Virus record (IMG/VR): IMGVR_UViG_3300007351_000034
From: a virus
DNA length: 38,120 bases
Direction: 5' to 3' (one strand)
Shown: positions 7,818-37,019 of the stretch, piece by piece
Numbering within the stretch: position 1 is the stretch's first letter
Layout of the letters: every line of letters starts with the position of its first letter
Position numbers and translations under genes: made by a program
The notes under the pieces: generated by a model
The model's database searches: none
Told to the model about the DNA's origin: nothing
Seen by the model: only the letters and a program-made list of their open reading frames with translations

Positions 7818-7843
7818 TGAAGCCTCCTGTAGAACACCTGTCT

Positions 7844-8569: not shown

Positions 8570-8844
8570 TCTTCTTCTATAAAGCCATTGTCCCAAAGTA
8601 CCTGTGTGAGCTGTTCCGAAATACTCTCCAGGAAGACGTGATCCAGCTGGGAGTTCATGACGTGCAGGATTTCATGTATGACCGTGCTGAGTGTCGTGGT
8701 GTCAGGAAGCCCGGTCTTTATGTGAATCTGGTGCCTTTCGTAGTTGGTCTGGCCCAGATCACCGTCATCGCTCCCCTCCCAATGCGGTGCGAATATCAGC
8801 TCGTACTCATGGGCTCCTATCTTCAACGTCTCGGGATAGGTCAT
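8566..8844 (-). CDS. Small HExxH (HEILH) metallopeptidase-like protein
   Basis: 92 aa with VIHEILHVMNSQLDH. Shares the HEILH core with the late gene 21127-21513. Confidence 0.55.
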   Translation of the reverse strand: MTYPETLKIGAHEYELIFAPHWEGSDDGDLGQTNYERHQIHIKTGLPDTTTLSTVIHEILHVMNSQLDHVFLESISEQLTQVLWDNGFIEEE

Positions 8845-8853
8845 GGGTATAGG

Positions 8854-9303: not shown

Positions 9304-9629
9304 ACCGCCACCGGGATAGCAAGAACGGCCTTCTTCTTGGGCCGGAGCCGGTCTGCTTGTTTATATTCCGTGAGGAGCGGGTAGAACTGGCGTGGATTGG
9401 GGATCTCCCCCTCACCGTAGTAGGCCCTATAAAACACCTCCCACCGCTCCTGTGAACGAATCATCAGCCCGAACACCGTGCGTACTAAAACATCGCTCCA
9501 CCACCTGCATCGTTCTGAACACCACTTCCCGCCGTGATCCTCGCCGTAGTTAAACTCCATCCTGCACAGCTCGCAGATAGGAAACACCCGTCCCGCAACT
9601 AAGCACCGCCCACAGTCTGATTTATGCAC
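9300..9629 (-). CDS. Cys-rich zinc-binding-like protein
   Basis: GTG start per the track. N-terminal CGRC-x9-CELC plus CSERC. 4-nt overlap with the downstream gene. Confidence 0.5.
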   Translation of the reverse strand: MHKSDCGRCLVAGRVFPICELCRMEFNYGEDHGGKWCSERCRWWSDVLVRTVFGLMIRSQERWEVFYRAYYGEGEIPNPRQFYPLLTEYKQADRLRPKKKAVLAIPVAV

Positions 9630-9704
9630 ATCTCAGGTGTCTATGGATAAGACCCCGAGCACCGTGTCTGAAGCCTACGTGAAATTCCTGAGAATACCTG
9701 TGGA

Positions 9705-10025
9705 TTACGTGTTCTTGAGTTCCTTCGTCAGCATGAAGTGCTGACTGGTGAGGACTTCCTGGATATGTTCGAGCCCTTTGATCGTGTTCTTCTTCCTGGT
9801 GAGGGTCTGTCCTTCCTCGGTAGCGTCCCACGCACGCTCACACTCGGCCTGGGACTTGTAGTTCTCTCGGTTAGCGGTCATCCAGACGGCTGCCTTGGCA
9901 GATAGATTCCCTACTTCCTCATAGAAGCGGTAGAGCCACACGGCACAGAAGTTTCGATACGAAGCGATCTCATCCCCTGAGAGACCTCCCTGCTCTACTC
10001 GATTAATGATCTGTTTGAACTCCAT
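9705..10025 (-). CDS. Hypothetical protein
   Basis: Start moved to ATG 10025 (MEFKQIINRVEQ...). The longer track version (to 10154) overlaps the neighbouring gene. No domain recognised. Confidence 0.5.
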   Translation of the reverse strand: MEFKQIINRVEQGGLSGDEIASYRNFCAVWLYRFYEEVGNLSAKAAVWMTANRENYKSQAECERAWDATEEGQTLTRKKNTIKGLEHIQEVLTSQHFMLTKELKNT

Positions 10026-10029
10026 ATAG

Positions 10030-10290
10030 CTATGAGTTGTACAAGTACCCGGACTGTTCAAAGAACCACGCTTCCTGCATTCCTCGGCGGTTTGGGGAGG
10101 TAGCAGAAATCTGCACGTCCCTATGACCAGGCCGTGCAGGCTTCCGGCCCCCATCTTCGCTGATCCTCACGCTCGTACCCGATGGCAAGTACAGTTCATC
10201 GAGAACAGTGGCGTAAAGCCACCTCACGAACATGCGGGCATAGCCATCTTGTACCCGTATCCAGGGACTTTGCTTGAAAGGAAGTTTCAT
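10030..10290 (-). CDS. Hypothetical protein
   Basis: Start placed at ATG 10290 (MKLPFKQSPWIRVQDGYARMF...). The same 11-nt start context, ATAGCTATATG, is used at 10025. Confidence 0.4.
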   Translation of the reverse strand: MKLPFKQSPWIRVQDGYARMFVRWLYATVLDELYLPSGTSVRISEDGGRKPARPGHRDVQISATSPNRRGMQEAWFFEQSGYLYNS

Positions 10291-10358
10291 ATAGCTATAG
10301 GTTAGGGGTGGGTTCTCTCTCATCCATATTCAAGTTAGTTAATTACCTTCTGTGGGTG

Positions 10359-10643
10359 CTATTTCTTTGGTACGAGCATCAACGTCGAGCGGTTCACCTT
10401 GAGAGGCAGCTTATTTTCCTCAAGGAGAGCTTCTATTGTTCGCGCCAAAAACATATCCGAGTGAGTAGACGGGTGGTGGTCAATAATTCTCTGTGATTGA
10501 CCCGTTCTAAGTACGGTTTCTATCAGAGCATAAGCAATGAGTGTGGAACGTCCGCTCGCTCTTTCACCCGTGTAGAGCCACTGCAACGCAGGCAAGTACT
10601 TCTTCTGTTCTTTGGTTAGAGTTAGTTTAATTTCTTTTCTCAT
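10359..10643 (-). CDS. Hypothetical protein
   Basis: 94-aa track ORF. GERASGRST is only a degenerate P-loop-like string. Confidence 0.55.
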   Translation of the reverse strand: MRKEIKLTLTKEQKKYLPALQWLYTGERASGRSTLIAYALIETVLRTGQSQRIIDHHPSTHSDMFLARTIEALLEENKLPLKVNRSTLMLVPKK

Positions 10644-10658
10644 AGGACAGGGTGATGG

Positions 10659-10766
10659 TTAGGGGCCAACATAATCACAACCGTTGCAGTGGCGGCAGTA
10701 CATGATGTATGGGTATTCACTCCCGTACATTGAATGGAACCCAAGCCAGCAGAGTAGTTTCCTCAT
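10659..10766 (-). CDS. 35-aa Cys-containing small protein
   Basis: Encodes MRKLLCWLGFHSMYGSEYPYIMYCRHCNGCDYVGP. From memory this pattern resembles small prophage proteins of the DUF1660 type. Below the track cutoff. Confidence 0.4.
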   Translation of the reverse strand: MRKLLCWLGFHSMYGSEYPYIMYCRHCNGCDYVGP

Positions 10767-10767
10767 A

Positions 10768-10935
10768 TCATTTCTCTTTAGTACCCTCTTGGGTGTCCTT
10801 GATAAACACTTTCAAGGTGCGCCCGTCGTCCTGCACGTCCGTGACTACCTCAATATCATCCTCCCACGCGACGAACACCCGGCCGCCGCCGTATCGCTTC
10901 TCTTTCGTCCAGTCGATTACTTCGATGCGGTTCAT
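10768..10935 (-). CDS. 55-aa hypothetical protein
   Basis: ATG 10935 overlaps the upstream stop (ATGA). Encodes MNRIEVIDWTKEKRYGGGRVFVAWEDD.... Below the track cutoff. Confidence 0.45.
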   Translation of the reverse strand: MNRIEVIDWTKEKRYGGGRVFVAWEDDIEVVTDVQDDGRTLKVFIKDTQEGTKEK

Positions 10936-11084
10936 ACGCTCTGGTCATTAGTGTGGTCGTTCTGGGAGAGGGAGCGGAGACGTTTCTCGGCCTTATACAT
11001 CTCCCGTAGCACAACCTCCTTCTCCCTCGGCCCGCTCCGTAGAAGAAGCTCGCGGACGGCTTGTAGTTTCTCGTTGTTAGTCAT
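10932..11084 (-). CDS. 50-aa hypothetical protein
   Basis: ATG 11084 overlaps the end of 11077-11376. Encodes MTNNEKLQAVRELLLRSGPREKEVV.... Below the track cutoff. Confidence 0.4.
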   Translation of the reverse strand: MTNNEKLQAVRELLLRSGPREKEVVLREMYKAEKRLRSLSQNDHTNDQSV

Positions 11085-11376
11085 GGTTGCGGAAGGTTTT
11101 GAAGGCATTGTCTACTTCCTCGTCACGCCGGAGATAGCCACCGTAGTATTTTTCTCGACCCATTTCTGCAACAAGCACGTCTGCATCTTCAGGAGTGATA
11201 CGTATGCGTACACTCTCCTCAACGGCAGAGACGACTTTTTCGATGAGGGTGTCGAGGAACTGCTGCACCTCGTGATACTGCGGCCCGGAAAGGTGCGTCG
11301 CCCAATCCGCAACTCGTGCCTCCTCCCGCGCATCCCGCTGCAACTGTTTTAGGTTCATAGTGTTCTTGTGTGGCAT
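11077..11376 (-). CDS. Hypothetical protein
   Basis: 99-aa track ORF. An alternative ATG is at 11358 (MNLKQL...). Confidence 0.55.
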   Translation of the reverse strand: MPHKNTMNLKQLQRDAREEARVADWATHLSGPQYHEVQQFLDTLIEKVVSAVEESVRIRITPEDADVLVAEMGREKYYGGYLRRDEEVDNAFKTFRNHD

Positions 11377-11388
11377 GGTGGTGTGGGT

Positions 11389-11565
11389 CTATTTGCACCT
11401 GATAATGCGGAAGCCGTCCGCAGCCTCGACGGTGCAGCGATTTCCGTCTACCGCCACATCCCCACTATCAAACACCGTGGCGGTGTATAGAGGCTCTCTC
11501 GTGTAGTACGCCAGTGCGATGAGGAACAGCACGATAACCAGCACAGCGACGAATGATTTCTCCAT
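11389..11565 (-). CDS. 58-aa membrane-anchored small protein
   Basis: MEKSFVAVLVIVLFLIALAYY... has an N-terminal hydrophobic helix. Below the track cutoff. Confidence 0.45.
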   Translation of the reverse strand: MEKSFVAVLVIVLFLIALAYYTREPLYTATVFDSGDVAVDGNRCTVEAADGFRIIRCK

Positions 11566-11579
11566 ACGTCAGATAGTGG

Positions 11580-12158
11580 TTAGAGCTTTTCTGCCTCTGC
11601 CTTCAGCTCGTTCGCCTTGGCTATCAGTTCATCGGCTTTGGAAAGGAGTGCGGTCTTCTGCTCATTGTCCTCACCAAGTTCGATGTCTCCTTTGCCGATG
11701 AGGTAGTTTCCGTTCTCTATTTCAATCTCCTGCACATTCTCTCCTGACCATTTGATGCCGAAGAATAGACCTGCCTTGAGTTTTAATGTGCCGAAGACCC
11801 ACGCGTTGCCGAAGACCCACGCGTTGCCGAAGACCCGCGCGTTGCCGAAGACCCGCGCGTTGCCGAAGACACACGCGTCGCCGTAGACCTGCGCGTTGCC
11901 GAAGACCTGCGCGTCGCCGTAGACCTGCGCGTTGCCGGAGACCCGCGCGTCGCCGTAGACCCACGCGTTGCCGAAGACCCACGCGTTGCCGAAGACCCAC
12001 GCGTTGTCCTCTACCGACAAGTTCGCTTCTTCTTCGATGTACCCGCCCTTCTCACCCTTTCTCGCGTCACCGAAGTCTTTGAGTGCTTCCACTTGGAACA
12101 GTGGTTTGCCGAACGGAGATACCTTATCTGACTTGATGAGCTTGTATTTGGTATTCAT
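11580..12158 (-). CDS. Hexapeptide-repeat (left-handed beta-helix-like) protein
   Basis: About 13 consecutive six-residue repeats (GNAWVF / GDARVS / GNAQVY) follow an N-terminal LFQVEALKDFGDARKGEKGGYIE region. The C-terminus is a coiled coil. Confidence 0.7.
   Translation of the reverse strand: MNTKYKLIKSDKVSPFGKPLFQVEALKDFGDARKGEKGGYIEEEANLSVEDNAWVFGNAWVFGNAWVYGDARVSGNAQVYGDAQVFGNAQVYGDACVFGNARVFGNARVFGNAWVFGNAWVFGTLKLKAGLFFGIKWSGENVQEIEIENGNYLIGKGDIELGEDNEQKTALLSKADELIAKANELKAEAEKL
11786..12018. repeat. Tandem 18-bp repeat (GCGTTGCCGAAGACCCAC-like), about 12-13 units
   Basis: Head-to-tail 18-mers with a few substitutions. They encode the hexapeptide repeats and generate the Arg-rich artefact ORFs in the other frames. 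Confidence 0.9.
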
Positions 12159-12206
12159 GTGATAGTGGTTAGAGGTGTTTATCTTTCGCAGATCTTCGTG
12201 GCTAAT

Positions 12207-12473
12207 TTAAGAAGATACTGGGGTGATTACTTCGTGTTTGACTTTTACACCTGGGAACTTTTCACAGCCTCCGGCAACCCAATCCATAAAATCCTCGTAT
12301 TTGCCGTCCGATACCCCATATTTTCTTTTTAGCTTACCTTCCAGGTAATCGTACCCAATCCATCCAAATCTCCCGGTTGGGATTTCAGAACGCTGGGGGT
12401 CTTTCCAATACGCTTCCTTACGCACAGCCTGGTCTTCCTTCCATTCATTCCAAAGTTTTATTTCTTTCTCCAT
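12207..12473 (-). CDS. Hypothetical protein
   Basis: 88-aa track ORF on the operon strand. Confidence 0.6.
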   Translation of the reverse strand: MEKEIKLWNEWKEDQAVRKEAYWKDPQRSEIPTGRFGWIGYDYLEGKLKRKYGVSDGKYEDFMDWVAGGCEKFPGVKVKHEVITPVSS

Positions 12474-12497
12474 AGTAGTAGGGGTGATTTAGGGGGA

Positions 12498-12878
12498 TTA
12501 CTGGGAAATCAGGCCAAATGGCATTTCGTGAGCGAGCTGTTTCTTAAGGTGTTCGCGCAAGTTTCCTCGCTTGTAGTAGTTTTCTTCTTCTGGTACGGCT
12601 TCTACCACCTCATCGAGACTCCCCTTCTTAACGAGACTTGCTGACGCCTGACAATCCCATCCGGTGTAGTCACAGCCGCCTGAAATATATGCGTGTTCAC
12701 CGTCTTTCATAAGCACAATATAGTGCCAGTCTGCGCCGTCATTTTCTCCGTAGACGGCCGCAAGGACGTTATCAATATCGTTTTTGTCAACATTGGCCAG
12801 TAAACACATTTCCTTTAAGTCCCAGTCAATCTCACGTTTTTCTTCGGCATTCTGCTCTATAATTTCTTTGTTCGTCAT
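12498..12878 (-). CDS. Hypothetical protein
   Basis: Start moved to ATG 12878 (MTNKEIIEQNAEEKREIDW...). The N-terminal 96 aa of the track ORF are low-quality and overlap neighbouring genes. Confidence 0.55.
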   Translation of the reverse strand: MTNKEIIEQNAEEKREIDWDLKEMCLLANVDKNDIDNVLAAVYGENDGADWHYIVLMKDGEHAYISGGCDYTGWDCQASASLVKKGSLDEVVEAVPEEENYYKRGNLREHLKKQLAHEMPFGLISQ

Positions 12879-12895
12879 ATACAGTAGGGGGATGA

Positions 12896-13048
12896 TTAGT
12901 GTAAGGAGAAAAGCATCATTGCCAGACCAAGAAGATACGTAACAGTTGCGGGAGTTGCAGGGTCGCTGAATTTCACACCTTTCGAGCCTATATATCCGAA
13001 TATTGCGAAGAAAAGTCCACTCACAAACAACCCAATTTGAATCTCCAT
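12896..13048 (-). CDS. 50-aa two-helix membrane peptide
   Basis: Encodes MEIQIGLFVSGLFFAIFGYIGSKG...TYLLGLAMMLFSLH. Below the track cutoff. Confidence 0.35.
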   Translation of the reverse strand: MEIQIGLFVSGLFFAIFGYIGSKGVKFSDPATPATVTYLLGLAMMLFSLH

Positions 13049-13062
13049 AAGTAAGAAGTTGA

Positions 13063-13359
13063 TTAAGAGTTCTCTTTAGAGAGGAGTTCAGCGATGATAG
13101 GTTTGCATTTCTTAACCTGCTCATCGAAGATTTTTGATAGGTCGTCGCTCGTAAATTCATCAACAATATCTCCGATAGGCGTATCTCTCGTTGCAGTATT
13201 TAAGCCGACAGCCATGAACGGTATGTGCGTCTTACGGCCATTTGGATGGGTGTAAATCATCTCAAAGGCGTTTCTCAAGAATCCCCAATCATCCCGATAC
13301 TGTCTGTACTCTAGTCGCCACTCACCCTGACTTACTGTTTTCGTTTTTTCTTGTCTCAT
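13063..13359 (-). CDS. Hypothetical protein
   Basis: 98-aa track ORF with an ATGA overlap to the upstream gene. Confidence 0.6.
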   Translation of the reverse strand: MRQEKTKTVSQGEWRLEYRQYRDDWGFLRNAFEMIYTHPNGRKTHIPFMAVGLNTATRDTPIGDIVDEFTSDDLSKIFDEQVKKCKPIIAELLSKENS

Positions 13360-13694
13360 ACAAGTAGTTCTTTAGAAGGGAGGGTTGGTGACTCTTTCCC
13401 GGCGATCTGCGCGGTCACGCGGTCTTTCGTTTCCCCGAGAAAGAGCTTGTGGTCTTTATCCGTGTCCCGAAGTTCCTCATAGTCCTCCCCGGTGAGCTGA
13501 TAGTCTCGGTGGAAACCTGCCGCACGCTGGAGGTCAGGAAGAATGGCCTGGATGTGGTTCCCCGAGACCGTTCCCTCTCTGAACACACCGACCTTCCCGG
13601 TAATCTGCGCCCGGATAGCTGTCGGCAGTTCGGTTTCATCAACAGAGATGAAGTCGTCTTTGCCATAGCCAATTTTCACGCGAAAATATTTCAT
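13356..13694 (-). CDS. Hypothetical protein
   Basis: 112-aa track ORF with 4-nt overlaps at both ends. Confidence 0.6.
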   Translation of the reverse strand: MKYFRVKIGYGKDDFISVDETELPTAIRAQITGKVGVFREGTVSGNHIQAILPDLQRAAGFHRDYQLTGEDYEELRDTDKDHKLFLGETKDRVTAQIAGKESPTLPSKELLV

Positions 13695-14488
13695 GCAAGT
13701 CCCTTACCGCTAGTAACTTCCCTCTGTTGTCTGTACCTGATCCACGCCGCCTCTAGCTTCGCCCACTTCTCTTTCAGGTCATTAGGAGAGTTAATCGAAG
13801 GGAAATAGGGCTGTCGGTTGGTCTGCGGGAGTAGCTTTACGACCGCCAGAACCTTCTCAAGTCCGTACTCGGCTATCAAAAACAGGCAGGCCGCGCGTTG
13901 TGTTTTATTGCCGTAGTACGTCTTGTTCTTCGGATCTACTTCCTCGAATGACTTAATGATCGAGCTGACGAGTTCGTGCTCCCCGCGCCCCGCGCTAGTT
14001 GTAGTGTCTTCTGTAGTGTCTTGTAGTGTCTTATTAGGTGGTTCACTTTTGGGACAGCTGGTCCCATTTTTGGGACTACGAGTCCCATATTTGGGACGAG
14101 ATTCGCCCTTCAGTCCCATTTTTGCGACAAGTTTCCCAAACTTCTTATGCGCCTTGATGACCGTGATGACGCTCCCGTGCGGAGCCTGTATAAGATTTAT
14201 GTAGCCTTGATCCTCTAGGTTCTTGAGCCACCTGAAATAGGTGCTGCGGCCCACCCCTAGTTCTTCCTTGACTTCCTCATACGTCACCGGCTTCCCCCCT
14301 AATACCTTTCCAAGCCCCTCCTCACTTATCGAGGTCATCTTGTCGATGAGCCACATATAGAGCCATACGGAAATCCCCATCCGCTCGATGTGCTTGGGAT
14401 CGAGCAAGTCGTTCTTGATGGTGATTCCGTATCCCTTCATAATGTGCAGTTGGCTTGACGGGCTTGTAACTACAGATTCACTACTCAC
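13691..14488 (-). CDS. Putative replication initiator / replisome organiser (winged-helix N-terminal domain)
   Basis: PVTYEEVKEELGVGRSTYFRWLKNLEDQGYI looks like a wHTH. A repetitive linker (PKYGTRSPKNGTSCPK) is encoded by iteron-like DNA repeats. The C-terminal domain is helical. Start is GTG 14488 or ATG 14440. Confidence 0.5.
   Translation of the reverse strand: MSSESVVTSPSSQLHIMKGYGITIKNDLLDPKHIERMGISVWLYMWLIDKMTSISEEGLGKVLGGKPVTYEEVKEELGVGRSTYFRWLKNLEDQGYINLIQAPHGSVITVIKAHKKFGKLVAKMGLKGESRPKYGTRSPKNGTSCPKSEPPNKTLQDTTEDTTTSAGRGEHELVSSIIKSFEEVDPKNKTYYGNKTQRAACLFLIAEYGLEKVLAVVKLLPQTNRQPYFPSINSPNDLKEKWAKLEAAWIRYRQQREVTSGKGLA
14001..14128. repeat. Iteron-like repeat cluster inside the initiator gene (candidate origin)
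   Basis: GTAGTGTCTT occurs three times (14001, 14013, 14023). Palindromic 16-mers follow: GTCCCATTTTTGGGAC (14061), GTCCCATATTTGGGAC (14082) and GTCCCATTTTTGCGAC (14113), plus a half site at 14047. Start-to-start spacing is 21 and 31 bp. Confidence 0.55.
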
Positions 14489-14752
14489 TCATAACGCTAG
14501 ATGATTGAGTCCCCATACCTTCACAGTCATGCCCGTTATAGGGTCTTTCACCTTTCCCATCTCGATAATCCCGTCTAAGTCGTTCCTTCTCGCACTTACT
14601 ACACTCGGAGCCTCCCACATCAACCTCCTGCACGCTTCTCTGTCACTCATCGGTCCCTGTTCGATGTACAGTCGAAGCAGGGACTGACACATAACCTCCC
14701 TCGTACTAGCGATGTCGTGGTATGCACGAATGCTGGTAGAGGTGGCGGTCAT
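14489..14752 (-). CDS. Winged-helix DNA-binding-like protein
   Basis: 87 aa. The pattern SVVSARRNDLDGIIEMGKVKDPITGMTVKVWGL resembles a MarR-type recognition helix plus wing. Confidence 0.45.
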   Translation of the reverse strand: MTATSTSIRAYHDIASTREVMCQSLLRLYIEQGPMSDREACRRLMWEAPSVVSARRNDLDGIIEMGKVKDPITGMTVKVWGLNHLAL

Positions 14753-14754
14753 GG

Positions 14755-15240
14755 CTAACTCATGGCTGCCGCTGCCGCTTCTTCGAGCGAAGCCGTCTCA
14801 GCATCTACTCCATCGAACGTAATATTCTCTGGGTTAAAGGTATCTTTCGGGTATTCGACCGACGTACCCTGGACTACCTTCTTCGCCGGCTCCATGATCC
14901 CCTTGTTCTCAAGGACAGTGCGGATGTGCGAGACGGCGAGTTCAAGTGCTGTGATCTGCATAACCACCTTCTCAGGAACCTTCTCCTCCCTCGGCGGGAG
15001 CTTGAACTTCTTCTGCTCCTTCCCGTTGTACTCCTCATCGTAGACCTCGACAGTCTGCGTCGTTCCTTCCCACTTATCCGGGCAGAACGGGAGGAACCCA
15101 TTGAGCCAGGTATTTCCGTACTCGTTAGTGAGGATTCCAACCCGCCATGACTGTTTGCCGAACTTCGAGAGAATCGGAGAGCCATCAGCCTTCTTATCGG
15201 TGTAATTGACCTTGGTGATCGTAAGTTTTTCTAGTGCCAT
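14755..15240 (-). CDS. Hypothetical protein, possible ssDNA-binding (OB-like) protein
   Basis: Start moved to ATG 15240 (MALEKLTITKVNY...), which avoids overlap with the nuclease gene. Beta-rich N-terminal half and acidic C-terminal tail. It sits next to a nuclease, as in recombination modules. Confidence 0.4.
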   Translation of the reverse strand: MALEKLTITKVNYTDKKADGSPILSKFGKQSWRVGILTNEYGNTWLNGFLPFCPDKWEGTTQTVEVYDEEYNGKEQKKFKLPPREEKVPEKVVMQITALELAVSHIRTVLENKGIMEPAKKVVQGTSVEYPKDTFNPENITFDGVDAETASLEEAAAAAMS

Positions 15241-15260
15241 ACAGTGTTCATTAATGCCTT

Positions 15261-16070
15261 TTACCGTCGTGCGGGACGTACATACGTTTGCTGTGCTCGA
15301 TATATCTCCAAGCACGCAAGGAACGCTTTCTTATCAGTCTCGTAATCGAATCGGTGCTGAACCTCGAACGAACCATCCTTCCCTAGTCGCACGATCGTCG
15401 CGCCGTCGTAGGGTTCATCACCCTCTGCTTCCGCAAGGAGACGGTACGCCGCAACCTGGAGCCAGTAGTCGATGCCGTAGATGCCGGAAGAGGTCTTGAA
15501 GTCGGCCATATACCTCCGGCCGTCCTTCCCGACGTAGGCGAAGTCCGCAGTCCCAGCGATAAAGAGTTCTGGGTTCGCCATGCGGCGTTCGGAGAAGAGG
15601 AAGTGGTCTACGTTCTTGACGGCCCAAGTGGTAAATGGCTTTATCGAACGAATGTCTGTTGGTGCATCGACGTAGAGTAAAAGTTCGTTTCTCTCTTGGG
15701 GCTGCCCACCCTGGTTCAGACACACATTGATGTACTCCTCCACCAGCGCATGAGCGTCTGTCCCATGCGCCCCAGCCTCTTCCTTCTTCTTGGTGTGGGC
15801 CTTCTGCGCTTCATCGAGTTCGGAAGGTGACACTAGGTAGTAGTCGCCGTCTCGGTCCGCGAACGTGTGGGCGATGTATTCGCAATTCGCCCGTATGTGC
15901 TCACAGACCATCCGCGCCGCCCACCCGATGAGTGCGGGCTTTGCGAGCACGTTCAGGATCGTCGTGATGCCGGTGTACTTCTTCTTCCCCTCAGGGTCGG
16001 CGAAGTAGTTGTGGTTCTTTTCGAAGTCCTCGGGGACGTACAGGTTGTCTTTGATTCGGATAAGGTTCAT
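15261..16070 (-). CDS. PD-(D/E)XK (RecB/Cas4-like) nuclease
   Basis: GTADFAYVGKDGRRYMADFKTS (D...D-x-K) followed by YWLQVAAY (QxxxY) matches the RecB-family nuclease core. Confidence 0.55.
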   Translation of the reverse strand: MNLIRIKDNLYVPEDFEKNHNYFADPEGKKKYTGITTILNVLAKPALIGWAARMVCEHIRANCEYIAHTFADRDGDYYLVSPSELDEAQKAHTKKKEEAGAHGTDAHALVEEYINVCLNQGGQPQERNELLLYVDAPTDIRSIKPFTTWAVKNVDHFLFSERRMANPELFIAGTADFAYVGKDGRRYMADFKTSSGIYGIDYWLQVAAYRLLAEAEGDEPYDGATIVRLGKDGSFEVQHRFDYETDKKAFLACLEIYRAQQTYVRPARR

Positions 16071-16324
16071 AGGCCACAGAGTTCGCTAACCTGCTCTTCT
16101 GTCGCGCCCCTCACCTCCAGTCCATGCTCCTGAATGAGATTGCAGTAGTAGGCGTTATCTCGAATAACCTCTTGCTTTGCGACCGCGATATTCGGCTCAA
16201 CGAAGAAATGGAGAATGTTGCAGAGGATGAACAGGAGCATGAGAGCTACCATCCACCGCTCGAACTTCGTGAATCCCTTAGTGCGTCGGGCGAGATACCG
16301 TGCCTCTAGGTAGGTCTGGTTCAT
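16067..16324 (-). CDS. Small membrane protein
   Basis: 85 aa with a hydrophobic helix (WMVALMLLFILCNILHFF). ATGA overlaps at both ends. Confidence 0.55.
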   Translation of the reverse strand: MNQTYLEARYLARRTKGFTKFERWMVALMLLFILCNILHFFVEPNIAVAKQEVIRDNAYYCNLIQEHGLEVRGATEEQVSELCGL

Positions 16325-16515
16325 ACACCAAGTTTCTTGAGGTGCTCAATCCGTTCGAATACCGGAGTGTTGTCATCGGGTACTGGCACTATCCGCCGGC
16401 ATGACGTGCAACCACCCCAAATGAGAAGGTTGGTGAAGTGAGACTTACTGTGGCAACGGTCGTGTATCTCTACCTTCACGTTCCGCAGCGGATTGTCCTT
16501 AGGGTCGTATGCCAT
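16321..16515 (-). CDS. 64-aa hypothetical protein
   Basis: Start moved to ATG 16515 (MAYDPKDNPLRNVK...), 1 nt after the upstream stop. Contains several Cys/His (CHSKSH, CTSC). Confidence 0.5.
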   Translation of the reverse strand: MAYDPKDNPLRNVKVEIHDRCHSKSHFTNLLIWGGCTSCRRIVPVPDDNTPVFERIEHLKKLGV

Positions 16516-16516
16516 A

Positions 16517-16705
16517 CTAGAAGACCTCGCGGGCCTCGTTATATGCGTCTCGATCCTCGTCTGCGTCCTGCCAGTCCCGGTATTCCGGACAGTCAAAGTC
16601 GTGGCGGGATACGCTCGTACACCCGTCCAGCTTTTCGCACTTCTCCCACTCGAACACTTCTCCGTGGAGGTCTTCGAGAGTGACTGCTTTGTTTGTATCT
16701 TCCAT
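16517..16705 (-). CDS. Small highly acidic protein
   Basis: 62 aa rich in Asp/Glu (DWQDADEDRDAYNE). First gene after the long non-coding segment. Confidence 0.55.
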   Translation of the reverse strand: MEDTNKAVTLEDLHGEVFEWEKCEKLDGCTSVSRHDFDCPEYRDWQDADEDRDAYNEAREVF

Positions 16706-16726
16706 ACGTTTGTGTGTTCCGCGTAT

Positions 16727-17296
16727 TCATCCGTCCCCTAGTAAGCGAACGGATGAGCACGAGGTACTAGGTGAGTAATGGAAGTCGTATTGAAAAAGAA
16801 GACAGTGCTTTGAGTGCTGGTGGGGATGGTGCAAGCTTTTTGTTTAGCTTTACCGCGGGTTACTTGCACACGCATACATCCCCCATCAACACTCAAGACA
16901 CACGCATTACTGCGTGCTCTAGAGAAGTACCGAATACAGACGGCAGGCTGGGCTAGCCGAAGGAGTAAGGAGCCTACGATCTCCAACCTAGGGCGGCGGC
17001 ACTACCATCTGTATTCGATACTCCTTTCCCGCCCCGAACCCCCAACCCATAGGGAGGAGGTACGCAAGATACAGTGGATACGGTGCACAGGGTTCCCGGC
17101 ACAGGCCGGGAGTTCGAGGCAGGAACGGTCGAAAACGATATAATGTGCGAAGTACCAGTATGTTTTACATCAGGGCCGAAGCCCCGTACTGGCACTACAC
17201 GTTCACGACCGGCTAGAGTGTCTTCCCTCTCAATGTCCGACTTCCTGATATAACTATACACCCGTCTAGGGACAAAAAGCAAGCGCAATGGGGTAG
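16727..17296 (-). ncRNA. Candidate large structured RNA (about 570 nt), class unknown
   Basis: No credible ORF in any frame. 24-bp helix 16923-16946/17002-17025 has 4 G.U pairs valid on the minus strand only. C(UUCG)G hairpin at 17171-17186 lies inside a 10-bp helix. GUAA hairpin at 16901-16916. An 87-nt irregular hairpin spans 16810-16896. A motif copy lies immediately 5'. Confidence 0.55.
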
Positions 17297-17307
17297 GTGG
17301 GGATAAC
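17297..17307 (-). promoter_or_regulatory. Copy of conserved motif GTTATCCCCAC (minus orientation)
   Basis: The plus strand reads GTGGGGATAAC. It lies directly after stop codon 17308-17310 and directly 5' of the structured RNA candidate. Confidence 0.4.
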
Positions 17308-17472
17308 CTAATACTTCATCCACCGAAGCACGGATCGGCGATAGATTGGCCGTTCGGTCCCCTTCTGTAGCTGCTCAACAATCTGGGAAATGGACAGTCC
17401 CCTCCCCCGCAGCTCCTTGACCGCGAGAATCATCTTTACATCAGGCTTCCGGCCTCTTAGTTTCGTTTCCAT
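17308..17472 (-). CDS. 54-aa helix-turn-helix protein (resolvase/psq-type HTH)
   Basis: Encodes METKLRGRKPDVKMILAVKELRGRGLSISQIVEQLQKGTERPIYRRSVLRWMKY. Below the track cutoff. 16-nt overlap with the upstream gene. Confidence 0.55.
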   Translation of the reverse strand: METKLRGRKPDVKMILAVKELRGRGLSISQIVEQLQKGTERPIYRRSVLRWMKY

Positions 17473-17867
17473 TTAGGTATAGCGGCAAGTCGCCACCTCG
17501 GTCGTTCTAAGACCATACGCTCGGCCTCGTGATACTGCAAGCTCTTCACCGCACTATGTGGTATACAATCGTACCCTGCCCCTGAAGCGAACGTGAGGAA
17601 CGACCTGAACGCCTTTTCAGCCTTCTTCTGGTAGAACTCTGACAGTTCGTGTCCTATGAAATAGGCGAGGTGATCTTCGGTTATTTCTTCAACGTCCCGG
17701 ATTTTGCAGGTCTTGGCGAAGCGTATGAGTAGCGAGCGGTACTGCCCGGCCTGGTACGGATGTATGCCAAACTTCCATTCAGCGTATTCGTCGATCAGCG
17801 CATAAATCTGGCCCGGCCCCGAAAAGATTTGGAGCATGGACTGATTATTAGTTGCAACATGTCTCAT
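17457..17867 (-). CDS. Hypothetical protein resembling an integrase N-terminal SAM-like (core-binding) domain only
   Basis: 136 aa. YAEWKFGIHPYQAGQYRSLLIRFAKTCKIRDVEEITEDHLAYF resembles phage integrase N-terminal domains. No catalytic RHRY region follows. First gene of the leftward arm. Confidence 0.4.
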   Translation of the reverse strand: MRHVATNNQSMLQIFSGPGQIYALIDEYAEWKFGIHPYQAGQYRSLLIRFAKTCKIRDVEEITEDHLAYFIGHELSEFYQKKAEKAFRSFLTFASGAGYDCIPHSAVKSLQYHEAERMVLERPRWRLAAIPKWKRN

Positions 17868-17939
17868 GGTAATTCTTTCTTCACTAAACCTTCATGAAGG
17901 GAGTGGATAGCAATGTTTCTTACAGAAAGCAAAGAGTGG

Positions 17940-17984
17940 GAAATAGAAAAGCCCCCGGAGGGCTTGGCGGCCACAACCGGGGGC
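17940..17984 (-). terminator. Intrinsic terminator on the minus strand, upstream of the first leftward gene
   Basis: Perfect 9-bp stem AGCCCCCGG/CCGGGGGCT (17949-17957 / 17976-17984), followed on the minus strand by UUUUCUAUUU. Confidence 0.5.
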
Positions 17985-18053
17985 TAGATAAGTATCACAT
18001 GCCTCCCTATCCTCTCCCGCCAAGCATGGGGATTACTCCCGAGAGGATGAATC

Positions 18054-18113
18054 GGTATTACCCCTCCCCTCCCCCGCTGTCAACACTTGACAGGAAATTG
18101 CGTAGTATTACAC
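18054..18113. promoter_or_regulatory. Back-to-back divergent sigma70-like promoters sharing the palindrome CTGTCAACACTTGACAG
   Basis: Plus strand: TTGACA 18086-18091, 16-nt spacer, TACACT 18108-18113. Minus strand: TTGACA 18082-18077, 17-nt spacer, TAATAC 18059-18054. The two -35 boxes form a 17-nt palindrome (18076-18092). Confidence 0.4.
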
Positions 18114-18174
18114 TGACACTAAGCCCGAAGGACGGATTTGAACATCGCGTCCCCGGCATAGCTAGCTACAAGCA

Positions 18175-18195
18175 GACGCCCCACGGGGCGTTTTT
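18175..18195 (+). terminator. Intrinsic terminator on the plus strand, upstream of the first rightward gene
   Basis: ACGCCC/GGGCGT 6-bp stem with a 4-nt loop, followed by a T-run (18190-18194). Confidence 0.55.
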
Positions 18196-18196
18196 G

Positions 18197-18207
18197 CGTT
18201 ATCCCCA
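18197..18207 (+). promoter_or_regulatory. Copy of conserved motif GTTATCCCCAC
   Basis: Begins 2 nt after the terminator T-run (18190-18194); 33 nt upstream of ATG 18241. Confidence 0.4.
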
Positions 18208-18240
18208 CCAATTACGCCCATACTTCCCTACTCTTAGGGT

Positions 18241-18390
18241 ATGGCATCCGCAGAAAAAGCAAAGAAACCGCTCTACAAACAGCGCACGACTATCAAGGAA
18301 GGGTTGGCAGAACTCCGAAAGGCATTCAAGAAGGGGTTCAAGCCAATGAACGATAAGGGCATACACAAATCGCCCCGAAAAAAGAAGTAA
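18241..18390 (+). CDS. 49-aa lysine-rich basic protein
   Basis: Encodes MASAEKAKKPLYKQRTTIKEGLAELRKAFKKGFKPMNDKGIHKSPRKKK. Below the track cutoff. First ORF after the motif. Confidence 0.45.
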   Translation: MASAEKAKKPLYKQRTTIKEGLAELRKAFKKGFKPMNDKGIHKSPRKKK

Positions 18391-18392
18391 TT

Positions 18393-18695
18393 ATGACCGG
18401 GGTGGGATACTTTCAAACACTAGAAGACTTCTACGCACGAGGCATAGAACTCATGCGGAAGAAGAACGCCGACTATGCCGGTGTAACTGACCCGTTTAAG
18501 AACTTTAGAAACGCCCAGTTGATAGGACTCACGGTGGAGCAGGCTATTCTAGTCCGAATCCTCGATAAGCTCGCTCGCATAGGCAACCTTATAGACAAAG
18601 AGGCACAGGTAGCTGATGAATCCCTCGAAGATACACTCATGGACTGCGCTAATTACCTGAATATCCTAGCCGCTTACCGATCCTCTAACCACTAA
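18393..18695 (+). CDS. DUF1599-like all-alpha protein (MazG/NTP-pyrophosphohydrolase-like fold)
   Basis: KKNADYAG...FKNF...RILDKLARIGNL...ESLEDTLMDCANYLNI matches my recollection of the DUF1599 pattern. Confidence 0.5.
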   Translation: MTGVGYFQTLEDFYARGIELMRKKNADYAGVTDPFKNFRNAQLIGLTVEQAILVRILDKLARIGNLIDKEAQVADESLEDTLMDCANYLNILAAYRSSNH

Positions 18696-18772
18696 CAGAG
18701 CATATGAAAGACTATTCTGACCCCCTCATATAAGAAAGTAATCCACAGCCATTTACCCCTCCCCGGATAAAT

Positions 18773-18798
18773 AATCAATGTAAATCAATTTAATCAAT
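18773..18798 (+). repeat. Three direct AATCAAT repeats at 10- and 9-nt spacing
   Basis: AATCAAT at 18773, 18783 and 18792. The last copy overlaps ATG 18797 of the putative terS. Confidence 0.8.
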
Positions 18799-19054
18799 GG
18801 CTAGCAAAGGTGGAAAGAGGCCGGGAGCAGGACGACCGAAAGGAACGACTGAGATCCCCAAAATAAGGAACTACTTTACCGCAGAGGAGATGGAGGTGTT
18901 TGCCCGTGGCCTGATGGAGCGTGCAGAGACTAGCGACAAGATAGCTACCTGGCTCGCAGATCAGATATTCGGGAAGGCGCACCAGACGATAGACGCGAAT
19001 GTGGGAGGGACGCTGACGATTACGTTTGACCCTGCTTTTAAGAAAAATGATTGA
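18797..19054 (+). CDS. Putative small terminase subunit / DNA-binding protein
   Basis: 85 aa with N-terminal GGKRPGAGRPKG. Positioned upstream of terL, separated only by an HNH insertion. Confidence 0.4.
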   Translation: MASKGGKRPGAGRPKGTTEIPKIRNYFTAEEMEVFARGLMERAETSDKIATWLADQIFGKAHQTIDANVGGTLTITFDPAFKKND

Positions 19055-19583
19055 ACAATGGAAGGATGTAGTCGGCTATGAGGGCTTGTACCAAGTCAGT
19101 GATATTGGACGTGTCCGCGGGAAGAACTTAAGGAAGCTCCACCTATCCACTACTCGCTACCCTATTGTTGATCTGTACAAAGAGAACAAACGCACCACTA
19201 AGTTAGTTCATAGACTGGTGGCAGAGGCTTTTATCCCACTGGTTCCTGGCAAGAACAATGTGAACCATAAGGATGGCAGTAGAGACAATAATGCAGTCTC
19301 GAATCTTGAATGGTGTACTCAAAAGGAGAATATAAAGCACGCTTTCGATGTTCTTGGGTATAAAAACAATTTCCAAACGAATCACCCTAAGCCATCACTC
19401 GGCAAGTTTGGTTCTCTCCATCATGTGTCTAAGCCAATCCTTCAAATCCTCAACGGTGATGTTGTTAAGCGTTTTGAAAGTGGAATGGATGCAGTAAGAG
19501 AAGGCTTTAGAAGCTCACACATAACTGAGTGCTGTCAGGGTAAGCGCAAAACACATAGAGGTTATGGCTGGAGGTACGCCTAA
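19047..19583 (+). CDS. Free-standing HNH homing endonuclease (NUMOD4 + HNH_3-type)
   Basis: WKDVVGYEGLYQVSDIGRV (NUMOD4-like). VHRLVAEAF...VNHKDGSRDNNAVSNLEWCTQKEN (HNH). C-terminal GYGWRY. Start at ATG 19047. Visibly more AT-rich than its neighbours. Confidence 0.8.
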   Translation: MIEQWKDVVGYEGLYQVSDIGRVRGKNLRKLHLSTTRYPIVDLYKENKRTTKLVHRLVAEAFIPLVPGKNNVNHKDGSRDNNAVSNLEWCTQKENIKHAFDVLGYKNNFQTNHPKPSLGKFGSLHHVSKPILQILNGDVVKRFESGMDAVREGFRSSHITECCQGKRKTHRGYGWRYA

Positions 19584-20961
19584 ATTACATGAGAAGCAGA
19601 TAGACGTTGCCCAATCTAAGGCACGTTTTAAGGTCATCAGGGCGGGACGACGCAGTGGGAAGACGACGTTCGAGATAGAGAACATGCTATTTAAGGCAGT
19701 CTCTGGCAAGGGCAAGAGCATCTTCTACGTGGCCCCCACAATGAAGCAAGCCAGGAGTATCGTATGGGAATCGCTAAAGGCTAGGCTCGGAGGTATCGGC
19801 GATCTGAACGAAGCAAGGCTAGAAGCAAAAGTGCCCACTGATTCCGGTGAACAGTCACATATTCACGTCTTTGGTTTCGAGGCGCGAGAGAACTTTCGTG
19901 GTATGAAGGCTGACCACATCACTTTCGATGAAGTCGATACTTGCAAAGATTTCTTTATTGGCTGGCAAGAGATATTCCGCCCTGCTCTCATTGACACCGC
20001 AGGCACAGCAGACTTCATCGGAACCCCGAAGAAAGAAAACCCTAACCTACGCCGCCTTGAGAAGGAATCAGAGAATGACCTAGACTGGCAGTGTTTTCAG
20101 TTCAAGACCTCAGACAACCCGCACATTCCTGTCGAGGAGATCGAGAAAGCGAAGGCCGAGATGGACTCACAGACCTACAAGCAGGAGATTCTTGCTGAGT
20201 ACGTCGAGAACGCCGGAGCACTGTTCAAGTACACCGCGCTCATAGACACGTTCACCAACACCATCACCAAATCCCCTGAGAAGTATTTGGTGATTGATGT
20301 GGCTGATGATGGCTCGGACACCACCAAGTTCTCCTTCTGGCAGGGACTAGAGGAATACCGGCGCGAGACATTCTCCCGGATGAACACGGAGAGTATCGTC
20401 ATGCAAACCCGTGAGTACCAGCAGGAAGAGCGTATCCCTATGTCGCAAACGATTGTGGATGCTATCGGCGTGGGTGCTGGGGTAGCAAGCAACTCCTTAC
20501 TCGACGGGATCGTAGGCTTCAAGTCATCCTACGGCCCTATTCGTACGGACATCGACCCCGTGAGACTTCCGAACGTCCACTACCTGAAAGACGCTCCCCT
20601 CACCTCGGAGTACAAGAATATCCGTTCACAGTGCGTGTTCACCCTTGCTGACCATGTGAACAACCACAAGATAGCCTCCAAGTGTACCGGCAGGGATAAG
20701 GAGGTGATTATCGAGGAGCTAGCAACCTATCAAGATGCCTCACAGGGCGATGGTAAGCGCATGGCAACCCCCAAGGAGGATGTGAAGGAGCTTATCGGTC
20801 GCTCCCCCGATGACAGTGATACATGGATCATGCGTATGTACTTTGTTATCAGAGAAAAGATGCTCCCCCACCAGTCAGAGGACGCTGCGCGGTTGTCTCG
20901 TGAGATCGAGGAGCGATTCTCTATTAACCAGTCCCGGCAGAGTATGAATAGCACGCGCTAG
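19564..20961 (+). CDS. terL: Terminase large subunit
   Basis: Walker A-like RAGRRSGKTT, Walker B-like HITFDEVD, and a C-terminal nuclease-like region with acidic residues. 465 aa, at the head of the morphogenesis module. Confidence 0.85.
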   Translation: MAGGTPKLHEKQIDVAQSKARFKVIRAGRRSGKTTFEIENMLFKAVSGKGKSIFYVAPTMKQARSIVWESLKARLGGIGDLNEARLEAKVPTDSGEQSHIHVFGFEARENFRGMKADHITFDEVDTCKDFFIGWQEIFRPALIDTAGTADFIGTPKKENPNLRRLEKESENDLDWQCFQFKTSDNPHIPVEEIEKAKAEMDSQTYKQEILAEYVENAGALFKYTALIDTFTNTITKSPEKYLVIDVADDGSDTTKFSFWQGLEEYRRETFSRMNTESIVMQTREYQQEERIPMSQTIVDAIGVGAGVASNSLLDGIVGFKSSYGPIRTDIDPVRLPNVHYLKDAPLTSEYKNIRSQCVFTLADHVNNHKIASKCTGRDKEVIIEELATYQDASQGDGKRMATPKEDVKELIGRSPDDSDTWIMRMYFVIREKMLPHQSEDAARLSREIEERFSINQSRQSMNSTR

Positions 20962-22279: not shown

Positions 22280-22502
22280 TAGCCTATAGACACAAGCCGC
22301 TATGGTGTTGTGGCGGCTCGGAGAGCGGAGTCGAGGCTACTGCAAGCTCTCTTAAATTGGCAGAGTATGGAGCCGAAAGGCTGTGAAGTATATCTGACAC
22401 CTCGCAGTCCGGTTAGAAACCTCGGGCCTTCGGCTCCTACACCAACGAGAGGCCGGACTGAGAATGACATAAGCGCAACCCCTGACTCAACATCGGGGGT
22501 TG
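22277..22502 (+). ncRNA. Candidate structured RNA / structured leader upstream of the portal gene
   Basis: Helices 22277-22285/22334-22342, 22295-22303/22310-22318, 22369-22377/22429-22437 (9 bp, perfect), 22405-22414/22451-22460 and 22476-22482/22496-22502. A GAAA hairpin lies at 22371-22382. Five G.U pairs are valid on the plus strand only. Confidence 0.35.
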
Positions 22503-22506
22503 TTGC

Positions 22507-22517
22507 GTTATCCCCAA
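22507..22517 (+). promoter_or_regulatory. Copy of conserved motif GTTATCCCCAa
   Basis: Follows a 7-bp hairpin by 4 nt; 36 nt upstream of portal ATG 22554. Confidence 0.4.
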
Positions 22518-22553
22518 CACAAGGTTGTATTTTGACGGCATTGTGCTAGGTGA

Positions 22554-24743: not shown

Positions 24744-24754
24744 GTTATCCCCAC
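24744..24754 (+). promoter_or_regulatory. Copy of conserved motif GTTATCCCCAC
   Basis: Lies 1 nt after stop 24740-24742. Its CCCCA pairs with the downstream TGGGG. 56 nt upstream of scaffold ATG 24811. Confidence 0.4.
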
Positions 24755-36015: not shown

Positions 36016-36280
36016 AGGTCGAACTTCCGTGCGAGGAAATCTGCAACCACAAATCCTATCAGGATTTCCACCAGTATCATTATTCGCACCCTACACCTCT
36101 CGGTACGGGGTGTCAAATAACTTCCCCACGGGTCTACCTCAAGCGTGCCTGAACGCTGTTAAGAGCGAGTGCAATATCCCGCAAACGGATATTCATTTGC
36201 TTCATCTCTAGAATCAATGCGTGTGCCTGTTCCTCAGTCATATCTCGTAGGATACTTATAATCCCGGCTAGTATACCACG

Positions 36281-36976: not shown

Positions 36977-37005
36977 AGCCTACTCCCCTCCTGTAGAGCT
37001 GTCAA
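36977..37005 (-). promoter_or_regulatory. Sigma70-like promoter of the moron (TTGACA-17-TAGGCT)
   Basis: The minus strand reads TTGACA (37005-37000), a 17-nt spacer, TAGGCT (36982-36977), then 8 nt before ATG 36968. This implies a leaderless or near-leaderless mRNA. Confidence 0.45.
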
Positions 37006-37008: not shown

Positions 37009-37019
37009 GTTATCCCCGA
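37009..37019 (+). promoter_or_regulatory. Copy of conserved motif GTTATCCCCgA
   Basis: 26-32 nt upstream of the 37046/37052 start of the fibre-module gene. Confidence 0.35.

Follow-up and report, generated by a model that had tools for sequence, protein, structure and literature searches.

How does a phage whose genes run in two opposed arms control both of them from one short gap? We asked this of IMG/VR virus record IMGVR_UViG_3300007351_000034, a phage-like genome of ~38 kb analyzed as a single stretch of 38,120 nucleotides (the window), in which a 373-bp gap (17868-18240) parts a leftward arm, beginning with the gene g136, from a rightward arm, beginning with g49. A sequence-only reading had placed back-to-back promoters in this gap, each followed by a short terminated RNA, and every sequence feature that it listed is present in the window, with four corrections. 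Our own reading, to which we give a probability of roughly 0.6 from sequence analysis, is that the gap is a central divergent control module, in which an insulated rightward RNA resembling a small RNA (sRNA) is set beside a leftward attenuator leader for the early regulators. Systems of this kind (divergent promoters, attenuators, phage sRNAs) are known; the RNA motif, the promoter class and a repeated box described below are new.

The leftward leader and its two expression platforms

The leader occurs at all nine loci that carry g136 or a homologue (9/9), always syntenic with that gene. Five of these loci form clade A (the window, L111, L113, L114 and L126) and four form clade B (L125, L127, L128 and L129). 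In the window the leader is a predicted RNA of ~108 nt on the minus strand (17941..18048) with four helices. Helix P1 (AUCCUCUC/GAGAGGAU) pairs 18041-18048 with 18009-18016, and is accompanied by P1a, a hairpin with a GUAA loop (18029-18040); the 8-bp helix ATCCTCTC/GAGAGGAT around GGGA-GUAA-UCCC, picked out by the sequence-only reading, is confirmed here. Strand X (GCUUGGCGG, 18017-18025) lies directly 5′ of the P1 3′ strand, and a conserved linker, GAUACUUA, occupies 17989-17996. The 9-bp terminator proposed earlier is also predicted: its stem, T, has GC-rich arms (17977-17985 with 17950-17958), an 18-nt loop and a folding energy of -24.4 kcal/mol, and runs into a U tract with the tail UUUUCUAUUU (17941-17950). 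A pattern scan gave just a shorter alternative hairpin at this place, while RNAfold predicts the full one. The loop of T holds X' (CCGCCAAGC, 17962-17970), a perfect complement of X; through the loop-loop helix that the two form (X:X', 8-10 bp), the apex of the terminator hairpin is tied to the 5′ domain.

This fold covaries. X and X' pair at 72/72 positions in eight sequences, which hold seven sequence versions: the window's own GCUUGGCGG with CCGCCAAGC, GCUUGGUAG with CUACCAAGC, GUCUUGCAGG with CCUGCAAGAC, CUUGGCAG with CUGCCAAG, GCUUGCAGGC with GCCUGCAAGC, GCUUGCUGGC with GCCAGCAAGC, and GCUUGGCGG with CUGCCAAGC, the last with one G-U pair. Double compensatory changes are found in 3/8 columns of P1, 1/4 of P1a, 4/9 of X:X' and 4/8 of T. 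MAFFT alignments of the leader misplace the helices, and alignment to a covariance model misaligns L126 and L113 and adds two spurious reverse-strand rows; pairs were therefore counted by exact string match on manually located strands. When the 3′ partner is slid by 1-3 nt, pairing falls from 37/40, 66/72 (72/72 with corrected L128 coordinates) and 37/40 to ~50-60%, and a perfect long-range helix of at least 9 bp appears in 2-18 of 300 shuffles per sequence. G-U pairs arise on the minus-strand reading only, so the fold belongs to a strand-specific RNA and not to a DNA site. With only the window sequence to build on, a covariance model finds the other four clade-A leaders (E 1e-25 to 3e-5); no further match was credible. 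A U tract comes after each of the five clade-A terminator hairpins, which are all rich in GC (-21 to -32 kcal/mol).

Clade B keeps the order of these elements (X-bearing domain, AUACUUA-like linker, 5′ arm, X', 3′ arm) and changes what the arms do. Where clade A has the terminator, they form a 10-bp helix, GUUACGCCUC/GAGGCGUAAC, with no U tract; GGGAGG, the Shine-Dalgarno sequence of the g136 homologue, lies in its 3′ arm, 7 nt ahead of the AUG. The helix covaries to GUUCCGCCUC/GAGGCGGAAC in L128 and L129, with 30/30 positions paired. The expression platform has been exchanged between the lineages, a terminator in clade A for a helix that sequesters the ribosome-binding site (RBS) in clade B. 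Such an exchange is the pattern of riboswitches and protein-binding leaders, and it is mainly because of this swap that we read the leader as a cis-acting regulator. The earlier picture of a terminated leader breaks down in the sister clade, where the same fold is joined to the Shine-Dalgarno-sequestering helix; the lack of a leader terminator there argues for a cis-acting riboregulator and not for a modifier of polymerase processivity.

A separate complementarity was seen in clade B. The leftward promoter spacer GGTGAGCGAGAGGTG is close to the reverse complement of ACGCCTCTCGCTACC, the region of the 5′ arm of the sequestering helix ~150 nt downstream (L125:2600-2625 and 2738-2752; L127:75-100 and ~180-195). 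GGTGAGCGAGAGGTG would be an anti-sequestor if the transcript starts further upstream; otherwise the pair would be inverted DNA sites.

How might the leader work? If X is ignored, the terminator hairpin gains 3-4 inner pairs up to a small loop exposing CCAA or GCAA, and the clade B counterpart of this extended apical stem is a 5-6-bp hairpin, h. X' overlaps just the apical inner stem of T (in clade B, hairpin h). Because X' also takes part in this inner stem, two alternative states would be available, an extended terminator hairpin and a kissing or pseudoknot fold. The 5′ domain (P1 and the GUAA-capped hairpin) would present the 9-nt X, and X would pair with X' at the apex of the terminator hairpin. 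Since X' is made before the 3′ arm of T, X could capture it first; our guess is that this slows closure of the hairpin and lets polymerase read through, and that an effector on the P1/X domain restores termination. The leader would in this way act as an attenuator in cis, setting how much transcription reaches g136 and the helix-turn-helix (HTH) gene behind it. The effector may come from the phage, with g136 itself as one protein candidate, or may be a host factor or small molecule.

The segment between terminator and g136 (17868..17940, minus strand) is kept in L111, L113, L114 and L126. It contains a CCCAC box (17936-17940), the 11-mer TTGCTATCCAC (17903-17913), a degenerate copy of the genome-wide box that is invariant in the window, L111, L113 and L114, and the palindrome or hairpin CCTTCATGAAGG (17889-17900), which overlaps a weak Shine-Dalgarno sequence. 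At the RNA level clade A keeps CAUCCCACUUUUUG, the invariant UUGCUAUCCAC (the degenerate box copy) and a hairpin (CUUCAU.../...AUGAAG) over the Shine-Dalgarno sequence, with CUUCUUCAU/AUGAAGAAG as its counterpart in L111. This second hairpin over the RBS would set the translation of g136.

Back-to-back promoters and the rightward RNA

The predicted transcription starts lie ~73 bp apart, at ~18121 on the plus strand and ~18048 on the minus strand. Between them stand what appear to be two host sigma-70-type promoters, back to back on opposite strands with their -35 hexamers 3 bp apart, which bears out the divergent control region proposed earlier. The two hexamers make up an inverted repeat, CTGTCAACACTTGACAG (CTGTCAA-CAC-TTGACAG). 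The sequence-only reading had described it as a 17-nt palindrome at 18076-18092; the repeat is there, at 18077-18093, and it is interrupted (7+3+7), since its reverse complement mismatches at the 3 central bases and the 7-nt arms flank a non-palindromic CAC.

The rightward promoter, TTGACA(18087-18092)-16-TACACT(18109-18114), matches the sigma-70 consensus at 10/12 positions and is the sole such site in 38 kb and the best of the window. A second -10-like hexamer, GACACT (18115-18120), follows directly. The counterparts of this promoter, assigned by eye, are TTGACA-18-TAGATT in L111 and TTGACA-18-TAAGTT in L113, both with TGn-extended -10 elements. The leftward promoter (18055..18083, minus strand) is TTGACA(18083..18078)-17-TAATAC(18060..18055), with the purine-rich spacer GCGGGGGAGGGGAGGGG. 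Both TTGACA sites and both spacings are as first described; the leftward -10, in turn, is poor, matching at 3/6 positions without the usual final T, which is why the promoter scan did not list this site. The pattern is nevertheless conserved in its non-canonical form: all relatives that cover it have TTGACA or TTGCAA, 16-17 nt, a purine-rich 3′ spacer and TAnnnC, with TAACAC, TATACC, TATATC or TACGCC as the -10. This weaker promoter (TTGACA-17-TAAYAC, purine-rich spacer) would make the folded leader.

The window has fewer TTGACA hexamers than chance predicts (10, with 16.7 expected), and 5/10 copies stand in intergenic, promoter-like contexts; two copies only 3 bp apart are therefore notable and more than chance. 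L111 and L113 carry the interrupted palindrome unchanged. L126 and clade B do not have it: L126 has TGTCAA and TTGCAA 24 nt apart, and clade B is without the second hexamer. Because these lineages lose it, the palindrome is not a conserved element, and from its sequence we take it to be a by-product of two abutting -35 hexamers rather than a conserved operator. The 15-mer TGTCAAGTGTTGACA also turns up in intergenic, promoter-like places of unrelated viral and metagenomic contigs (L115:144-164 and ~250; L121; L072/L077; L073; L117; L119; L120), twice in L115 and L121, so that abutting -35 hexamers may arise repeatedly.

Conservation across the gap follows the predicted elements. Relative to L111 and L113, identity is 87.5% in the promoter core, 72-74% in the rightward RNA, 71-73% in the leftward terminator-to-ATG segment and 60-75% in the leftward leader (86% against L114), compared with 64% for the g136 gene (61-68% in relatives) and 53-55% for the rightward promoter spacer. 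The functional non-coding parts are thus constrained at least as much as the g136 gene, and the rightward promoter spacer, a part expected to be free, is not constrained.

From the near-consensus rightward promoter an sRNA-like transcript of ~76 nt would be made (18121..18196, plus strand). Conserved sequence starts exactly at the predicted start, with (U)AAGCCC at ~18121. A 5′ hairpin (18130-18152), different in sequence in each genome with its pairing kept, is followed by the 23-nt stretch CCGGCAUAGCUAGCUAsAAGCAG (18153-18175), which contains UAGCUAGCUA and is invariant except for one base. Within it lies the 10-nt palindrome TAGCTAGCTA (18159-18168), noted earlier and invariant too. The RNA closes with the intrinsic terminator that had been called here (18172-18197), missed by the pattern scan and predicted by RNAfold at -15.6 kcal/mol, with a stem at 18176-18191 and a U5 run. 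Its stem changes from ACGCCCC/GGGGCGU in the window to GCGCGUCCUC/AGGGCGCGU in L111/L113 with pairing preserved. The alignment of these three sequences shows two varying hairpins around an invariant center, and all three end in a GC-rich hairpin and a U tract, at which transcript release is predicted. The RNA folds better than its shuffles (z = -2.3).

With its own promoter, a U-tailed intrinsic terminator and a conserved unpaired seed, all predicted, the rightward RNA looks like a trans-acting sRNA in its build. Pairing of the seed with the leftward leader or with phage start regions was tried as an explanation and gave no conserved site. The terminator would shield the packaging and structural operon from the strong promoter in front of it. 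That operon would be switched on probably through the box that follows the terminator, and less probably by read-through. The order of promoter, short terminated RNA and genes described by the sequence-only reading appears on each arm in the window and its closest relatives, as far as sequence can tell. Its question whether related phages conserve the architecture has a divided answer: the palindrome and the rightward terminator are found in L111 and L113 and the leftward terminator throughout clade A, and L126 and clade B have lost the palindrome.

A repeated box, candidate regulators and the gene arms

The 11-mer GTTATCCCCAC (core GTTATCCCC) has 7 copies in the window against ~0.3 expected. 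Four lie on the plus strand (18198-18208, 22507-22517, 24744-24754, 37009-37019) and three on the minus strand (17307-17297, 8887-8877, 7882-7872). All copies mark gene boundaries and run in the direction of the gene that follows, as a rule 43-67 nt 5′ of its start codon, and the box is also present in relatives. Two copies lie directly 3′ of terminator-like hairpins, one before the gene at 22554 and the other at 18198-18208, directly 3′ of the rightward terminator and 43 nt before the g49 ATG. The position of this last copy suggests separate, phage-specific control of the late genes. GTTATCCCCAC probably either binds a phage regulator or belongs to a phage-specific promoter. Its assignment as a MotA-like -30 element, with the -10 ten nt further on, suits 2/7 copies and was rejected.

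The first two leftward genes offer candidates for such a regulator. The ATG of g136 at 17867 (gene 17457..17867, minus strand) is supported by a conserved N-terminus. Its structural model, with a predicted local distance difference test score (pLDDT) of 71, resembles the core-binding domain of tyrosine recombinases without the catalytic domain (XerA, probability 0.94, and the lambda Int core-binding domain; all E > 0.1). The gene behind it encodes a 54-aa resolvase-type HTH protein. Both would be small DNA-binding proteins, which makes them plausible regulators acting at GTTATCCCCAC boxes.

The leftward promoter has company as well. Three more minus-strand sites of its class (TTGAYW, a purine-rich 3′ spacer with GGGGAGGGG or GAGAGGUG, TAnnnN) lie at 37005..36977, 36116..36088 and 18778..18750, with TTGACA or TTGATT and 17 nt; their spacers end in GGAGGGGAG, GAGAGGTG or GGGGAGGGG, followed by TAGGCT, TAGGGT or TAAATG. 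Transcription from the site at 18778 would run leftward, antisense to g100 and g49, into the control region; that from 37005 would yield a nearly leaderless mRNA. CCCCTCCCC was considered as a genome-wide motif and rejected, as its one-mismatch count (13 against 11.5 expected) shows no enrichment; its exact copies are explained by the purine-spacer promoter class and one coding RGRG.

Behind the HTH gene, every relative has a gene-free stretch of 600-1000 nt that begins with the box and is kept in six relatives (window 16706-17307, minus strand; L111:1376-2150; L125:3385-4277; L126:2643-3662; L128:3277-4103; L129:719-1327). It is preceded by GTTATCCCCAC and a promoter-like TTGACA/TTGCTT-17/18-TATAGN, is similar among relatives at the DNA level (nhmmer E down to 2e-14) and matches no Rfam family; it could be a large non-coding RNA or a replication origin. 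A 274-nt intergenic stretch before a 604-aa gene (22280-22553, plus strand) looks highly structured (GGAGCCGAAAGGCU, GGGCCUUCGGCUCC) and ends in a hairpin, AACCCC...GGGGUU, with GUUGCGUUAUCCCC; it may be another terminated RNA, then a box.

The arms themselves carry a phage-like gene set. Minus-strand genes from ~7160 to 17867 encode a PD-(D/E)XK-type exonuclease, a DnaD-like/HTH protein, an RNase-H-like exonuclease and many proteins without assignment. Plus-strand genes from the g49 ATG at 18241 on encode g49 (49 aa, very basic), the DUF1599-like g100, a TerS-like protein, an HNH endonuclease, TerL (19564-20961) and then structural proteins. A 151-aa plus-strand open reading frame (ORF) that spans the gap (17894-18349) is interrupted by stops in relatives and is therefore not a gene. 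Tandem TAATCAATG / AATCAATKTA repeats at 18772-18799, immediately 5′ of the TerS-like gene (18797-19054), could serve for terminase binding or as a pac site. An HNH/NUMOD4 homing-type endonuclease (19026-19583) sits between the TerS-like gene and TerL in the window, while relatives have a Cys-rich ORF, NinG/HNH-like by eye only, as the first rightward gene (L111:1-335; L126:1390-1800), so the gene beside the control region varies. Relatives also carry GroEL-like (Cpn60, L125:12-1571) and GroES-like (Cpn10, L126:758-1018) chaperonins on the rightward arm by the control region; the window has no chaperonin gene of this kind.

The relatives were reached by a protein search with g136 and then a profile search, which gave eight homologues (46-63% amino acid identity), all on short ENA or Logan contigs. 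The whole gap arrangement recurs in relatives whose flanking protein is 55-63% identical. g136 and its family profile had no match in IMG/VR or in 185,579 species genomes, which therefore give no prophage or host clue. Searched as DNA, the region with its flanks has no homologue among GenBank phages, and the best cultured-phage match of the terminase has at most 35% identity. By blastn, nhmmer and tblastn, the IMG/VR terminase relatives (71 loci, 44-69% identity) share neither the upstream genes nor the gap, and their gene order 5′ of TerL differs from that of the window. Exact-pattern scans of IMG/VR and JGI metagenomes, for the palindrome or for palindrome plus G run, gave unrelated contexts only; g100 relatives are distant and not syntenic, and contigs reached via g49 homologues end short of the gap. 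ARAGORN gave nothing; Rfam gave nothing at gathering score over the window, and only chance-level matches at E<=10 over 17400-18700.

Competing explanations and known systems

Several points weigh against a control module of this design. Both the start sites and termination are predicted from sequence. In every relative the leftward -10 has a final C, unusual for sigma-70. The nine loci include two or three near-duplicates, so that covariation rests on ~6 independent sequence versions. No nucleotide is common to P1, X:X' and basal T, which may therefore coexist in one static fold with no switch, and in clade B X:X' does not overlap the Shine-Dalgarno-sequestering helix from which it would release the RBS. 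On the rightward side, nhmmer matches the RNA in the window, L111 and L113 only; it is absent from L126, which has a different structured stretch in its place, and from clade B, which has repeated CCCCAC motifs there. No target of this RNA near a start codon proved conserved when the window, L111 and L113 were scanned for duplexes, and the box after the rightward terminator is kept just in part in L113 (GTTATACACAC) and L111.

Other readings of the gap have to meet the same evidence. The sequence-only reading favored processive antitermination, with a Q- or N-type factor or put-like RNAs driving read-through of both terminators, and the layout invites it, since each arm has a promoter, a short terminated transcript and a long operon. 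Lambda pR'-tR' has a strong constitutive promoter, a short 6S RNA and a terminator before the first late gene, and is governed by Q antitermination. The rightward arm shares a host-type promoter ahead of the late operon, a short transcript, an intrinsic terminator before the first gene and a -10-like hexamer in the initially transcribed region. The GNRA-capped hairpin ~8 nt past the leftward start is boxB-like, and g49 is small and very basic. However, the 63 window ORFs, compared with Pfam and PHROGs, include no Q/N antiterminator, sigma factor, RNA polymerase, integrase or repressor family among the top 25 PHROG families listed, a scan that a novel antiterminator family would escape, and the small Zn-ribbon proteins put forward as antiterminators give weak, generic Zn-ribbon matches. 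Unlike the lambda transcript, the ~76-nt RNA has an invariant single-stranded stretch, is sRNA-like and is confined to three close genomes, and the box past its terminator, probably phage-specific, is an alternative route to late expression. In three genomes a -10-like hexamer at ~+1 (GACACT, TATTGT, TGTGAT) could cause a sigma-dependent pause, as used by Q-type systems and putL (PMC9378689). HK022 putL and putR resemble each other in sequence and two-stem fold; put is set apart from the terminators that it suppresses, which lie downstream, and works through the beta' zinc-binding domain (PMC9378689). The window RNAs recall put in being structured, following divergent early promoters directly, having two domains in ~70-110 nt and carrying a -10-like element near the start. 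Yet the two RNAs are unrelated to each other, with profiles that match their own kind only and different folds, and neither showed sequence or Rfam similarity to put. The second leftward hairpin is the terminator itself, part of the conserved fold, and in clade B is the Shine-Dalgarno-sequestering helix with no terminator at all. Antitermination on both arms therefore seems to us unlikely. Slightly better placed, if still rather improbable, is the idea that both transcripts are free-standing trans-acting sRNAs, with the flanking genes served by phage-specific promoters at GTTATCCCCAC on the right and TTGCTATCCAC on the left and no cis control of g136. Strong terminators would end both RNAs, a box or box-like motif stands 43-46 nt before each first gene (TTGCTATCCAC being invariant in four genomes), and X' is exposed at the apex of a hairpin, much like the recognition loop of an antisense RNA. 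There is also a precedent: the short form of IsrK from the Gifsy-1 prophage acts in trans on its own read-through isoform, switching on its translation (PMC4825925). At both loci one promoter gives a short terminated RNA and a read-through mRNA isoform with structure-blocked translation (predicted here), but their sequences are unrelated. The proposal, raised already by the sequence-only reading, suits the rightward RNA well and fails for the leftward one, whose fold in clade B runs directly into the Shine-Dalgarno sequence and AUG of the g136 homologue, neither terminator nor box intervening, and is part of the mRNA there. Strict synteny with g136 and the lack of an assignable -10/-35 pair of known type downstream of the box count against it too.

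Far less probable is that dimeric regulators of phage or host bind the palindromes (18077-18093 and TAGCTAGCTA) as DNA operators, the RNA structures being incidental. This would account for TGTCAAGTGTTGACAG being identical over 16/16 bases in three genomes, central GTG included, for the invariance of TAGCTAGCTA, for the recurrence of TGTCAAGTGTTGACA in unrelated intergenic regions and for the small DNA-binding proteins encoded right beside the region. But L126 and clade B lose the -35 palindrome while promoter and leader persist, and conservation of a DNA site does not predict double substitutions and one-strand G-U pairs that keep helices; for TAGCTAGCTA alone, the operator and RNA readings are compatible. 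That the gap is a packaging (cos/pac) site or replication origin we consider hardly credible. The TerS-like, HNH and TerL genes ~0.6-1.3 kb downstream suggest it, as do inverted repeats and a homopurine/homopyrimidine tract in the gap. The TAATCAATG repeats are, however, a better packaging-site candidate and the gene-free 16706-17307 a better origin; terminase relatives at 60-67% identity lack the gap region, and strand-specific RNA covariation would go unexplained.

The attenuator reading of the leader has its own precedents. Leaders of the riboswitch and attenuator type (T-box, TPP, r-protein) have interchangeable expression platforms. The phage leader likewise has a conserved sensor domain before a conserved gene, a fixed-position hairpin that is a terminator or an RBS helix by lineage, and a pseudoknot or loop-loop contact tying sensor to platform. 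It differs in that the competing helices share only the apical 3-6 pairs, that its ligand or effector is hypothetical, and that it is phage-borne and precedes genes for probable DNA-binding regulators instead of metabolic genes. The CI RNA of P4 (seqA/seqB/seqC) and the c4 antisense RNAs of P1/P7 use complementary boxes in an early-operon leader and premature termination. Here too short complementary leader boxes pair and appear coupled to premature termination, but there are just two, in one ~108-nt RNA; the Rfam C4 family has no match in the window, and the scanned ORFs show no sign of lysogeny functions. The T4 gene 32 mRNA has a pseudoknot in the leader upstream of a self-regulating nucleic-acid-binding protein gene. 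Both are phage 5′ leaders with a pseudoknot before a gene for a (here probable) nucleic-acid-binding protein; the folds are unrelated, and autoregulation by g136 would be a guess.

A larger claim is tentative and, in our judgment, distinctly less probable than the control module itself: that the leftward leader founds a new class of phage riboregulator, with a pseudoknotted sensor, a loop-loop helix and a terminator or RBS helix, and that with the GTTATCCCCAC box and purine-spacer promoters it forms a new early-to-late programme. Phage developmental switches are textbook models, almost all from a few cultured phages. This compact control region, which matches nothing in Rfam, belongs to an uncultivated lineage that lacks close relatives in culture, and the non-coding parts of its gap are better conserved than the neighboring protein gene. 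Should the RNAs be no more than static terminated transcripts, the locus would be a pair of divergent promoters of the ordinary sort, insulated by terminators. A leader that truly switches would be a new family of regulatory RNA with a clear genetic read-out, the first early regulators, and a part small and portable enough for synthetic control. The timing programme of the phage can be approached directly through the repeated box and the unusual promoter class.

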